Assembly (NCBI GenBank): GCA_963693365.1
Contig: CAVNZM010000002.1
Location: forward strand, 17,393,615 to 17,457,614
Length of the DNA: 64,000 nucleotides
Source: Amoebidium appalachense
Lineage: Eukaryota; Protista; Ichthyosporea
Reading direction: 5' to 3'
Of this stretch, positions 3,001 through 9,000 are shown piece after piece. The notes under the pieces are model-generated. The model was not told the DNA's origin and searched no databases. It saw only the letters and a program-made list of their open reading frames with translations. Every line of letters begins with the position of its first letter. Positions within the stretch are counted from its first letter, which is position 1. Made by a program: the position numbers and the translations under genes.

Positions 3001-6000
3001 CCAGTGCCGCCACCCCCCCCTACGTAGCCTTTGTCGTCTGCCTTACCTCTTCCCGTTTTTGCATGTAGCCATTAGGTGAGAGGTGTGTGTTTCAGTAGTA
3101 CACGGGGCAAAGGAGACGATGGAAGTGAATGATCCCAATGGTTGTTATTATTTATTTATTTTTGGTGGGGGGGAGAGGGGGACACGCATGCAACCAACCA
3201 CGTCTGCTGCTGAATAACCATATATGGTTAACAGGAGGACATTGAGATGTATGCCATGGAGGGCGTGAAACTGGATAAACGGGCCACTCTCTACAGGCTC
3301 ATAGGTGGGTGCTGGTGTGTGTGTGTGTGTGTGTGTGTGTGTGTGTGTGTGTGTGTGTGTGTGTGTGTGTGTGTGTGTGTGTGTGTGTGTGTGTGTCTGC
3401 ATGTGTGTGTGTGTGCGTGCATGTGTCTGCTGTTTCTGTGTCTGTGTGTGAGTCTCTCTCTGTGTGTGAGTGAGTGAGTGTGTGTGTGTGTCTGTGTGTG
3501 TGTGCGCGCGCATGCACACATGTGGGTGGGTGAGTACGTGCGTGCCCTGCCTGTGTGCGTGCGTGTGTGCCTGCATGTGTGTCTCTCTATGTGTGCATGC
3601 TTGCTCTCATGGGAAAGGGGGGAGACGGCGTTTGCGGGGGGGGGGGGGGGGGTTCAGGATTTTGGGTTCTGGAGAGGACGGGGTAGGGGGAAGCCGAGAG
3701 TATGAGAGAGCTATTTTGCTTTGTTTCTCTCGTTTGTTGTTCGTGCTTTTTTTTTTTTTTTTTCTTTTTTTTTTTCCCCTTTTTTTCCTTTTAAAAAAAA
3801 AGGGGGGAGGAAGGGGGAGGGGGTGGTAATTGCCGGGATGGAGTGGGTGGGTGGGTGGGGCAGTCTCCGCTGGTCATGTAGTGTCAGATTATTTATTGTG
3901 GAAGTATTTGCCGTATGTTGCCTTTTCCTCCTGCCCAAAATAATCTCCATTTATCCCCCCCCCCCCCCCCCCCCCCCCCATTAGTGCCTGGGCTGAGCGA
4001 GAAGAGACCGTCCGTGCTGTATGGAGACACCGTGCTTGTGCAGGATGCAGCCAATGGGGATGGGCCCTGGCACAGAGGGGTGACACAGCGGGTGGAGCTG
4101 GATGGCGTGCTGCTGGAATTCACAACAGAGTATGCAGGGTGGGGGGGGGGGGGGGGAGGGGAGGGGGGACAAGGTGTGTGTGTGTGGGATTTGTAACAGG
4201 GGTGTGTGATTGGGGGGGGGGGGGGGGGGGGAGGGGGATTTGTAACAGGTGTGTGTTTACCCGCCATTGGAGATATTGGCTCTCTCTGATTGCATTTTGC
4301 CGCCCAAATTCATCGTGCTATGTTCCCTCTGCCGGGTCACGACCTGACTCTTCTGCACGCACGCACGCACAAACACGTGCTCACGCAAACCCAGATGCAC
4401 ATGCACATGTGGGCAACCACTAACCGGGCGCACACACACACACACATAAACACTCCCTATTGCTACTCTGCTAACCCACCCTCACACGCACACACACACA
4501 CAAGCACACATGCATACACCCGCACACATACGGCGCGCACACACGCACACACACACACACACACACACACACACACACACACACACACACACACACACAC
4601 ACACACACACACACACACACACACACACACACACACACACACAGATTCAATCGTGGTTTTCTGCCCAACAAAACCTACAACGTGAGGTTCACGTTCTGCC
4701 GGATTCCGCTCATGTACATGCACATGGCCGTTACCAGATTGGCTAAGATGGACCAATCAGAGTCCCCAGGTGTTTACCTTATTTGGCTATATACAATCAC
4801 ACGTGACTAATGGTTGTTTATATCCTATTGGAGAAGAGCAGTTGGTCAGTTGGGTGGGTGGGAGGGAGGGAGAAGTAGAAGAGATAACTCGGAACGATAG
4901 GGGATGGGGAAGAGGGAAAGATGGCTATTCACTACGTAAATACCGGCATGCACGTTGGATGGGCAAGGGGGAGGGGGGTAAGGGGATGCATACACAACCT
5001 GAGCTGTACGTATACATAGTGATCGGAAAGGCGGAATGGAGGGGGGGGGGGGGAGGGGGGATTTGATCATGAACTTGTTGTAAACAAAAGAAGACGGTGG
5101 GTGGCCATGTGGGCACGCGGTGCCCCGGGGGATTTTTTTTGTGGGGGGGAGGGGGGGGGGGGGGGGGGGGGGAGGGAGGGAGGGTTCTTGGATTGTCAAC
5201 ACCTCTTTCACACACATGTGCTCGGTAGCCCACACGCATAACAAATATCTGACACATGGTGCATTTTACACCTATCCCACATATGGTGGATTTTACAACT
5301 ATCCCTCACATTGTAGGCATATTAGGTTTTACGTGTATAAAATACGGTAGGTATTGTGCAACTATCACACACATGGCCGACACAACGTCTATCCCACCAT
5401 GGTAGATATAACATCCCACAAATGTGGCAGATAATACTCAATCTATACCATTCATAGTAGATATCAGGCATATCACACATGGCATATACTACGTCTATCC
5501 CCATGTAGTGCTGTAGGTATCAGCTATCCATGTATCTGGCATGTAATAAATCTATCCACATGTAGTACTTAGGTATATCATACATGTGGCCTAATCTACC
5601 TTACTGTCACCATGGTAGATATTCTAATCTGTGGATATCCCTGCAGTCCCGATGAACCGATTTCTAAGTCCACCCCCAGTCAAGAGATCTTCTCGTGAAC
5701 ACAAGGTCCTCCCCCCCCCCCCCCCCCCCCCCCCCCGTTGGTACGATTTGTCTAATATCTGACGATTCTGCAGCATCCCTAAGACCCCCCTCCCCCTCCC
5801 CTCCCCCCCCCCCCCCCCCCCCCCCCCACCTTCTCTCTCTCTCTCTCTCCCTCTCTCCCTCTCTCCCCTCTCTTTTTTTTTCTCTCTCTCTCTCTCTCTC
5901 TCTCTCTCTCTCTCTCTCTCTCTCTCTCTCTCTCTCTCTCTCTCTCTCTCTCTTTCTTTTTCCTCCTTTTTTTTTTTTTTTTTTTTTTTTTTTTTTTTGG

Positions 6001-9000
6001 CGCCTGTTGTTTTGCTTGTCATTTGTTGTTCTGGTTGATTACCTGTAATCTTCGCTTATTTATGTGTGTGTGTGTGTGTGTGTGTGTGTGTATGTTGTGC
6101 GGGGTTGCACATACCGGTGTCTACTTTTCTTCTTACTGTTTTTCTCTCCACACACTTCATCTGTCCACTTCTGCATACCCCCTTTCATAGCTATAGACAC
6201 ACTTCACACATTGCGTTACGCGCACGCATGCACACACCGCTCTGTTGGCGACAGCTCCCTTGGAACCCATGCGGCATGTTACCCGCCGGCGTAACATAAC
6301 TCGGACTATCGGTTTGGCTTTTTTCAAGCCCAAAGCAATGGGTGATACCATATTTCCGGCTGACATCCGGGGGCATAGCTTTCCGTTCGAAGACGATAAA
6401 GTTCCGCCCTAGTAAGCGTGTTACTACCCTGCGGCGTGGGTCAAATCTCATATTTTCCCCTCTGATTACGAATTCTGTGGCCTTCGGGACTTAATTCTTT
6501 TCAGCTGGTGTAGTATGTTAGCCAGGGAAGTATCGACTTAGGTATCGACGGGGGAGCTTCCTAGAAGCCCCGTCTCCTGAGTTCCTATCTATATTTTTCT
6601 TGCTTCTGCTTACTGCTGCAACTTTAACCCCCGGCCTTTCCCACTGCCCTTGCCTGCATAAGCAACCCTGCTCGTCTCTGATCAAGACGGGTGACCTACC
6701 CATGTTCAAGTGAAACAGTATCTGAGTTGGGTTTCGTTAACGAGGGGAATAGGTCGAAACTCGGGTACTGTGGATGACGTGGGCCCCCCCTGAGGATGGG
6801 CTCTGCTTATTATGCATACTCTTTATGTATGGCTTGCATTCTGCATCGTGTTATCCGTTTGTTCTTGTGTACTTCGTACTTTTTGACGCATTCAAAACCC
6901 CCCCCCCCCCCCCCCCCCCAAAAAAAAAAAAAAAAAAAAAAAACCCAGAAAAAACAACCCTCCCAACCCTCGCTAAAAAGAAACAAAAAAACAAACAAAA
7001 AAACACTTAACTGGTTGCCATCACCACCACCTTCACACATCTCCTTTTCTCTGAGTTTCTTCCTTTTCCCAATATCTATTCCCACATCAAATCCCATGCA
7101 GGATGTTTCTTCTTTCCACATGTGCAATCATTTCCCGATCCAGATGAATTGTCTCCTTATATAAACACCAAGCAACTGTTAGCTCAGCAAGCACCTCCGA
7201 TCCCCCCCCCCCCCCCCCCCCCCCCCCCCCCCCCCCACCCACCCACCCACCGACCCACCCACACACACACACAAAAAGAAAAAGCCAACAGTTCAGCAAC
7301 CTGCCGAATACACACAAAGAGCAGTTCCCAGCAATTTTCAACATACTATTGATAAAACTAACGCAATAAAAACACCCTATATAATTGCATTTTTTACGAA
7401 AGAATTCTGAAGAAAGAACCCCCCACAGCCGTATTTCAACAAACATCTCAACGATCGGCAGCAGCAAGCAGTGACGCACATTGTGAGTGAGGATCTCAGC
7501 GGGTGGCCCTACTTTGTCCATGGTCCTCCAGGCACAGGTGTGTGTGTGCGTGTGTGCGTGTGTGCGTGTGCGTGTGTGTGCGCGCGCGTGTGTGCGTGTG
7601 CGTGTGCGTGTGCGTGTGCGTGTGCGTGTGCGTGTGCGTGTGCGCGCGCGCCCTCGCGCGCGCGCGTGTGTGTGTGTGTGTGTGTTTGTGCGCGCGCGTG
7701 CGTGCCTGCACGTCCATGTGCGCATACGTACAGGCGTGTGCGTGTGCATTTCACTTGTGTAATGAAAAGGGGCAGAGAAAGATACAAAATGATTTCGGGA
7801 TGTGGCCCCGGGTAGCGCAGAAATAACCAATTATGGCTGTATCCAACCTGACGCACTGATTGGCTGCAGGCAAGACCACGGTGCTGATTGAGGCCATCCT
7901 TCAAATATACTCACAGGTAGAAGACCCCCCCCCCCCCAAACCCTCTTTCCCACCCGTTTCTAAAAACCTGTTCTGATTAGATGCATGAATAGAATAACCG
8001 AATATGGACGTTAACACCAGCCTGGATATTTGATGTGTCGGCATTGTTCAGGCCAACGGCGCAACTATAAGAGTCATGATTGGAGGGCTGTGTTTGCAGC
8101 TCGTAGCGGTTCAACTTCGTTTGTCTTGTCTTTGCACACACACACACACACACACACACACACACACACACACACACACACACACACACACACACACACA
8201 CACACACACACACACACACACACACACACACACACACACACACACACACACACACACACACACACACACACACGCACACACACGCACGCGCACGCGCGCG
8301 CGCACACACACACACACACGCACGCACACAGCCCGGCAGCCGCATCCTTGTGTGCTGCCCGTCCAACAGTGCATGTGACCTCTATCTGTATCCCGGCCGT
8401 CTGCACGAAAAGGTGGCTGCCAGCGACATGCTGAGACTCAACGCACTCAGCCGAAACAAAATAGAGGTAAAGGGAGTTTGATGGGCTGGTATGGTATCCG
8501 TGTGTGTCGGTGTGAGGGGGAAGGGGCAAAAGGAAATCGGGAATGTGGTAGGGCGGGAGGTTTAATAGGTTGGTTGGGTCTTAGAAGGGGCTTTTGATGC
8601 ATTTTTAGTCTGTTTCATGTGTTATATTTGTCCTTCCTTCCGTTTCTTTCGATCGCTCCTTTCCACTATGCCCACTCGTTTTCTGTGTCGTTCTTTGCAG
8701 TTATTTGTTGTTTGGCATACACGTGCTCTGTCTCTCTCCCTCTATCCCCCCCCCCCCCCCCCCCCCCCCCCCATCCCCTCCCATCCTCTCCCTGTCCCTC
8801 TTCGAAGCCCCGTCTCTCTGTTTCTCTCCACTCCCCCCCCCCCCCCCCCCCCCCCCCCGTCTCTCTGTTTCTCTCCCCTCCCCCCCCCCCCCCCCCCCCC
8901 CCTCCCCCTTCTCCCTTTCCCCTCCCTCCCTCTCTCTCCTCAACTCTCTCCCTAACTCCCTCTATTCCTCCCTAACTCCCTCCCCCTCCTCCCCGCTCCC

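Follow-up and report, generated by a model that had tools for sequence, protein, structure and literature searches.

A high-copy (C)n-inserted retroelement of Amoebidium appalachense, probably Penelope-like, with a predicted S-G-C hammerhead fold near its 3′ end

What kind of element settles in runs of C, ends each time at the same sequence and loses its 5′ part to varying degrees? The question is raised by a repeat family in 64,000 nt of the ichthyosporean Amoebidium appalachense (the window hereafter; assembly GCA_963693365.1, contig CAVNZM010000002.1, forward-strand positions 17,393,615–17,457,614), which a first-pass annotation had described as an intronic, poly-C-ended, retroposon-like and non-autonomous family. 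Our analysis shows that the family is a high-copy element inserted in (C)n, a targeting behaviour already known from Chlamys Penelope-like elements (PLEs). We consider it most likely to be a PLE of the Naiad/Chlamys type that is copied by target-primed reverse transcription (TPRT) and carries a predicted hammerhead fold at its 3′ end, with its blocks in the order S-G-C. This ribozyme-like topology is what is new here; it is the unusual part of the element and was absent from the earlier account.

The window holds five clear loci and two terminal stubs, all ending in CATTCAA(A) plus poly-C and starting at variable points in C-runs (Table 1). BLASTN of the copy at 5738–6897 against the window recovered copies at 669–1233 (+), 44711–45763 (−), 55303–55821 (−, three pieces) and 54972–55108 (−, 76% identity), and a profile of the 3′ 257 nt found the clear copies and nothing else below E = 6; both bear out the clear copies first listed, with revised limits: the 44711 copy reaches further 5′, 55303–55821 is a nest of three pieces whose joins lie at CTGAG and at C-run microhomology, and 54868–55110 represents a sister family. 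Family A copies share 97.4–99.6% mutual identity. The 54868–55110 copy matches a loose-end consensus from 24–72 contigs of public sequencing runs and, judged by this match, is a member of a sister family (family B) and not merely a decayed copy; its C-tail makes up the pyrimidine tract of its host intron in RRP5. The terminal motif GCATTCAAAMCCCC occurs seven times in the window versus 0.11 expected, a count that takes in both stubs and omits the 55303 end, which reads ACATTCAACC. At the remnants previously placed at 63756 and 63991 the terminal motif is present and nothing extends beyond it. A third proposed remnant, 1760–1813, is not confirmed: it scores 35, whereas true copies score 152–160, an unrelated site 34 and the background 15.7 ± 3.1, and nhmmer misses it.

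The ends of the copies are informative. CATTCAA is followed by zero to two further A and then poly-C at the clear copies; C-runs border every 3′ end and, at four of the five clear loci, the 5′ end too, in agreement with the common end and the C-homopolymer targeting described earlier. We found no target duplication other than simple sequence at the clear loci. One of the five has A24 beyond its C-run, and otherwise there is no poly-A tail of the element's own. The copies show no tRNA head such as marks a tRNA-derived short interspersed nuclear element (SINE), the true 5′ end lying beyond the copies seen, and no Rfam match at gathering level falls within the element; on the tRNA head the earlier description stands. 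The 5738–6897 copy contains internal C, CT, T and GT simple repeats, and its 5′ junction recurs as a loose end in sequencing run X3.

The pattern of a fixed 3′ end and 5′ truncation, read in the first-pass annotation as TPRT-like, is carried genome-wide by the profile of public sequencing runs. Positions 6100–6897 are contained in 20 of the 24 runs listed (seven named studies), and contigs matching 6095–6910 number 12,185, 11,846 and 7,195 in three DNA runs. From the 5′ bin to 6795–6822, summed depth rises from 0.11M to 1.67M in run X1, from 0.025M to 1.08M in X3 and from 0.011M to 1.10M in X13 (16-, 44- and 104-fold), with the reservations that summed contig depth gives no copy number, that sister families joining at ~6650 account for part of the 3′ rise, and that X1 and X3 are possibly the source of this very DNA. 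Joints from the 3′ end or C-run lead back to 6668, 6713, 6783, 6788 and 6796, and a poly-C loose-end consensus stands before 6784 in 73 contigs. Despite the depth caveats, profile and joints fit many 5′-truncated copies and partial tandems. In the run contigs, three sites with common variants, 6700, 6784 and 6787, show C>T changes facing G. The flat depth of X4 was left out of account, since X4, like X20, is only presumed to be an RNA run.

The longest copy bears on whether the element codes for a protein. Its multi-copy depth (45700–45960 analysed) continues 5′ to at least 45844, 45845–45960 being passed over as repeat, and there it includes what are probably the last codons of an open reading frame (ORF) ending at 45777, which leaves a 3′ untranslated region (UTR) of ~1.07 kb. 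The other copies have two common differences in this frame, one silent and one V-to-I, and, by eye, the ORFs of two bivalve Naiads end in a similar C-terminus. Because the longest copy reaches these probable last codons, the window copies are likely truncated copies of an autonomous element, and we depart here from the first-pass annotation, which had seen no ORF. Alternatively, the element could be a non-autonomous derivative of a PLE, of the kind seen in Chlamydomonas MRC1 or Chlamys-N4, that uses the enzyme of an autonomous partner, the ORF tail being a remnant or chance; such pairs with common 3′ ends are known (PMC8557442 and PMC9977147), the 1.1 kb lacks a long ORF and contains simple repeats, and sister families in the run contigs have only ~6650–6830 and the terminus in common. 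However, multi-copy sequence extends 5′ past the shared start of all window copies, and neither of the two common differences goes beyond a silent or conservative change in a stop-terminated frame (a weak point, with two sites), and we regard a non-autonomous derivative as unlikely.

Several traits speak for placing the element among PLEs: frequent 5′ truncation with a fixed 3′ end and no poly-A tail of its own; a composite at 55303–55821 and go-back joints of the pseudo-long-terminal-repeat (pLTR) type, although no full pLTR-ORF-pLTR unit was seen; a microsatellite target, as in Naiads and Chlamys, here (C)n; and, likewise as in these groups, no canonical type I hammerhead (only S-G-C matches, bar one G-S-C from a tandem junction; Rfam Hammerhead_1, E = 8.3). 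TPRT in general yields a fixed 3′ end and 5′ truncation, and the window contains a reverse transcriptase (RT) fragment of the long interspersed nuclear element (LINE) type; the repeat could accordingly belong to a LINE with a microsatellite target, as its 3′ UTR, or be a SINE that depends on such a LINE, its hammerhead-like blocks being a convergent or chance protein-binding structure. That RT fragment (25031–26744), however, ends in (CA)n and has no sequence in common with the element, which lacks a poly-A or simple-repeat tail of its own as well as a tRNA head; partial tandems, the (C)n target and the Naiad-shared motif all indicate PLEs, and we judge a LINE or SINE origin improbable. The first-pass annotation had named a known element class accounting for the ends as what would overturn it, and Chlamys PLEs, with their (C)n target and intronic, 5′-truncated inserts, largely do account for them (PMC8557442; PMC9977147).

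Near the 3′ end, hammerhead blocks lie on the element strand in the non-circular order S-G-C in both families. The core, CUGAnGA, GAAA and UH, is that of the published type SGC, and stem III has 13 bp in family A and 9 bp in family B (published criterion, at least 4 bp). Core bases are identical between the families at 18 of 18 positions versus 86 of 114 elsewhere, and all 22 modelled pairs are kept in both. A loosened S-G-C descriptor (stems III ≥4, I ≥3 and II ≥2), defined after the motif had been seen, matched five times in the window, every time in an element copy, and in 0 of 3000 shuffles per family; allowing any of the six permutations on either strand, 14 of 5000 shuffles matched. None of 121 loci chosen on the motif alone (120 viral, 1 metagenome) passed the stem test, the exact 22-nt motif had no match in viral and metagenome contigs, and a comparison of the element with phage records gave no match. 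A flank of block C can form a helix like the stem I–II interaction. The S-G-C fold is probably under selection; it may also cleave, which we put at somewhat below an even chance. Stem II is perhaps assembled from two strands, the second being the upstream strand GACCUA, whose helix with 6750–6755 shows a U-A to C-G change in family B.

Other readings of the region were set aside. Family A leaves open an ORF from the AUG of block C, of the kind found in the anole PLE, but in family B this frame meets a stop at codon 13; selenocysteine insertion sequence, C/D-box small nucleolar RNA (snoRNA), hepatitis delta virus, twister and pistol motifs were dropped by eye, their motifs missing and Rfam giving no support; a decayed type I hammerhead using CUGAUCA at 6678 has no stem I; and a degenerate-motif match in a metagenome was due to chance, having no stems. 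Two further observations concern this region. A small hairpin with a palindromic UGAUCA loop (6674–6688, +) lies just upstream of the motif in a stretch still matched by sister-family contigs; a common 6678 C>T variant lengthens its stem, and the hairpin is a possible kissing-loop dimer site. One contig of run X1, with a joint from 6767 to 6757, has a 29-nt telomere-like TAGGG repeat inside the hammerhead region.

A number of results weigh against a ribozyme of this type or against the placement of the element among PLEs. Stem I has 3 bp in family A and 4 bp in family B where the published criterion is at least 4 bp; stem II comprises G-C and G-U and then a G.G mismatch, 2 bp in all, where the published SGC descriptor has G-C plus at least two pairs; and the linker is ~19 nt versus at most 8 nt. 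Covariation in the window amounts to two families and one double change in 22 pairs, which 164 of 500 shuffles reach. Two conserved helices compete with the fold, one formed by the upstream GACCU strand before GAAA and one by the post-cut-site strand pairing over CGAAACUC, and in family A the competing helices have −6.7 and −8.3 kcal/mol versus −2.2 for stem II. Folding z-scores are near 0, nested folding being unable to represent the pseudoknots of the motif. Among known 3′ ends read by eye (14 of 54 Naiad and 11 of 49 Chlamys ends, each assigned to the family before the next header), the S-G-C order occurs in only three Naiads; three Naiad "half cores" follow the canonical order, with long loops, the other eight Naiad ends have no core, and the 11 Chlamys ends contain no intact hammerhead core. 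Three protein searches with the ORF tail gave no match; a search with a MOV10 exon was likewise empty, so the organism may be poorly covered in databases. No RT or GIY-YIG gene of the element was seen, and no window copy reaches the RT region.

We propose a mechanism modelled on the behaviour of Chlamys elements, from which we infer the enzyme and the priming step: the RT-endonuclease of the element would nick a C/G homopolymer; the 3′ end of the G strand would prime cDNA synthesis at a fixed RNA site, CAUUCAA(A); and synthesis would mostly stop early, the cDNA joining at C microhomology, so that the insert splits the run and no target duplication is visible. Partial tandems would result when the element inserts again into the C-tail or the internal C7 run of an existing copy. 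Copies would be intronic because C-runs are common in introns. Because copies run across the predicted cut and their 5′ ends are not piled up there, the hammerhead-like fold is probably switched off in the template RNA; the runs show no depth step at 6729, beside that cut, which fits a PLE with an uncleaved RNA template (Frangieh 2024, PMC11167929). The fold may be protein-assisted, as in the anole PLE.

The orientation of the copies had also attracted attention. The hosts are MOV10 on the + strand (Pfam) and RRP5 on the − strand, and every copy is sense to its host, as first noted; the claim that all copies are intronic holds with the qualification that 669–1233 lies upstream of the first Pfam-supported MOV10 exon, where an intronic position is only likely. 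The region between the genes has no copy, an absence that is not significant (P = 0.19–0.30). C clusters stand on the sense strand in 22 of 28 cases in MOV10 and 24 of 53 in RRP5; after correction for this strand frequency, an all-sense arrangement has P = 0.057 when five copies are counted and 0.012 when seven are, and the bias is suggestive, a lead and not a result. An intron-hosted structured RNA copied from host pre-mRNA, as the first-pass annotation had considered, would account for seven of seven sense loci at these corrected values; yet only two genes are sampled and a single RRP5 intron contains two of the loci, no snoRNA or other Rfam match appears, and the probable ORF tail and PLE-like traits would go unexplained by a pre-mRNA origin, which moreover does not fix the orientation of insertion. 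We consider such an origin very improbable, and the PLE reading does not require it. Seeding of homopolymers by the element, also suggested earlier, is not needed either, although it could still occur: only 6 of the 158 runs of at least 10 C on either strand of the window come after an element end.

Table 1. Features of the element and its copies in the window (positions in window coordinates).
Position	Strand	Feature	Detail
669..1233	+	Family A copy, 5′-truncated at internal CCC	Between C24 and C27
5738..6897	+	Family A copy, 5′-truncated	Between C26 and C22+A24
44711..45850	−	Longest family A copy	5′ extent at least 45844
45777..45850	−	Probable 3′ end of the element ORF (last ~24 codons plus stop)	Frame, stop at 45779–45777
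54868..55110	−	Sister family B copy	~76% identical to family A
55303..55821	−	Partial tandem of three 5′-truncated family A pieces	Equivalents 6560–6794, 6722–6897, 6785–6895
63752..63765	−	Stub, terminal motif alone	
63987..64000	−	Terminal motif at window edge, then poly-C	
6693..6698	+	Upstream strand GACCUA, pairs 6750–6755 next to GAAA	Candidate alternative or composite stem II
6715..6731	+	Block S: stem III 5′ strand, GUU triplet, stem I strand	Predicted cut after 6728
6751..6771	+	Block G: stem II strand, C-GAAA-C, stem III 3′ strand	
6774..6810	+	Block C: stem I strand 6787–6789, CUGAGGA 6790–6796, extra U, GG (to 6799)	
6811..6897	+	T-rich tail	Ends CATTCAA plus 0–2 more A at the poly-C target

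The surrounding sequence offers several observations of its own. C-runs of at least 10 stand directly before A-runs of at least 8 in seven places (6898, 15222, 35490 and 51253 on +; 57031, 46108 and 37186 on −), and the order A-run then C-run is never seen in the window; such junctions are possibly captured poly-A ends of C-ended RNAs. The MOV10 exons show apparent one-base frameshifts at 9344–9353 and 12420, one of them at a C-run, which suggest homopolymer errors in the assembly, and poly-C lengths are therefore unreliable. By the best matches of the RRP5 exon, mostly fungi together with a EukProt entry and molluscs, the host looks opisthokont. At 24652–27073 (+), a 28S rRNA 3′ fragment (Rfam LSU) is directly joined to the broken LINE-type RT mentioned above (Pfam RVT_1, E = 6e-14; top relatives of solved structure, "Reverse transcriptase-like protein" 8gh6/8ibw and L1 ORF2) and looks like an rRNA-LINE chimera. 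On the − strand, 16860–32720 holds some four single-exon genes or gene fragments in tandem, built from six saposin A-type repeats (371 aa; Pfam SapA, E = 8e-44).

As regards novelty, we found no report of a permuted hammerhead in PLEs, or of (C)n-targeting PLEs in this lineage, in the open literature searched, and the accessible parts of a 2026 retrozyme preprint mention no permuted PLE hammerhead. If the predicted fold cleaves, this would be the first genomic, retroelement-borne non-circular permutation of a ribozyme, with nested partial tandems as a way for such rearrangements to come about. Independently of the ribozyme, a (C)n-targeting element of very high copy number shapes the pyrimidine tracts of introns.

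Comparison with known systems starts with Chlamys PLEs, which target (C)n and (CA)n and show 5′ truncation and partial tandems (Craig 2021, PMC8557442), and whose new inserts are all intronic, with a median of 128 bp (Lopez-Cortegano 2023, PMC9977147). The element resembles them, for example Chlamys-9_cRei and Chlamys-N4_cRei, in its (C)n target, intronic inserts, heavy 5′ truncation, partial tandems, lack of a discernible target duplication and AA plus C-run end; among the (C)n-targeting Chlamys ends read, six of seven terminate in AA and a C-run. It differs in that its host is neither a green alga nor a slime mould, no sequence likeness was seen and the Chlamys ends read carry no hammerhead cores. 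The end before the Chlamys-1_meVir header (PMC8557442, File S6), that of a Botryococcus Chlamys, contains a degenerate S-G-C look-alike without U16.1 and one base of the C block.

With canonical PLE hammerheads (Cervera & de la Peña 2014, PMC4209133; PAc, Frangieh 2024, PMC11167929) the element shares a core near the 3′ end of the insert and the unpaired base 9/10.1, an extra base before G10.1 together with a G10.1-C11.1 pair being typical of these ribozymes (PMC4209133). It also shares the long helix III of fungal and protist PLE hammerheads and the uncleaved RNA as likely template; a PLE hammerhead that needs protein and has uncleaved RNA as template is on record (PMC11167929). Canonical PLE hammerheads, however, are all type I, in the order C-G-S. 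The S-G-C order was named type SGC by Eckert 2023; until now it had been reported only in RNAs from metatranscriptomes, whose source organisms are not known (PMC10085705). These type-SGC hammerheads (HRIMA-1) have the same block order, all core bases, the extra U before G10.1 and a candidate helix linking the far sides of stems I and II; in contrast to the element, whose cleavage is predicted, they come from metatranscriptomes with no known genome and have 5-bp stems I and II, a 3-nt linker and proven cleavage.

A further parallel comes from Naiads, which are reported to lack canonical hammerheads and in eight cases to carry "half cores" whose second half lies 35–50 nt off on either side (PMC8557442). 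We tentatively propose that a subset of N-terminal-endonuclease PLEs, from cephalopod Naiads to this (C)n family, may carry an active S-G-C hammerhead with a two-strand stem II, in which two C-block pairs would be stacked on the upstream GAC strand and this strand would also act as an off switch; we lean slightly against this proposal in its full form. Were it true, part of the "missing" hammerheads of Naiads would be explained, and if the fold cleaves both here and in cephalopod Naiads, the genome-less SGC hammerheads and the Naiad "half cores" would become linked. In the published sequences (Craig 2021, File S5: Naiad_Obim, Naiad_Ovul and Naiad_Esco), the two octopus ends, previously filed as "half cores" or unflagged, can be read by eye in the S-G-C order with stems I and III that differ from those of the element in a covarying way. 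Stem III there has 5 bp, the triplet is GUA, stem I has 6 bp and the linker 1 nt, compared with GUU, 3–4 bp in stem I and ~19 nt in the element; the squid end has stems I and III in S-G-C order and no stem II. These Naiads target (TA)n rather than (C)n. The cephalopod Naiads and the element nevertheless have in common the S-G-C order near the 3′ end, CUGAnGA-U-GG (CTGATGA-T-GG in the octopus ends) and a T-rich tail of ~75–100 nt; the octopus ends further share the same contiguous 2 bp of stem II and, upstream, a GAC strand (GACACC in octopus) that pairs just ahead of GAAA, and Naiad C-termini are, by eye, like the ORF tail of the element.

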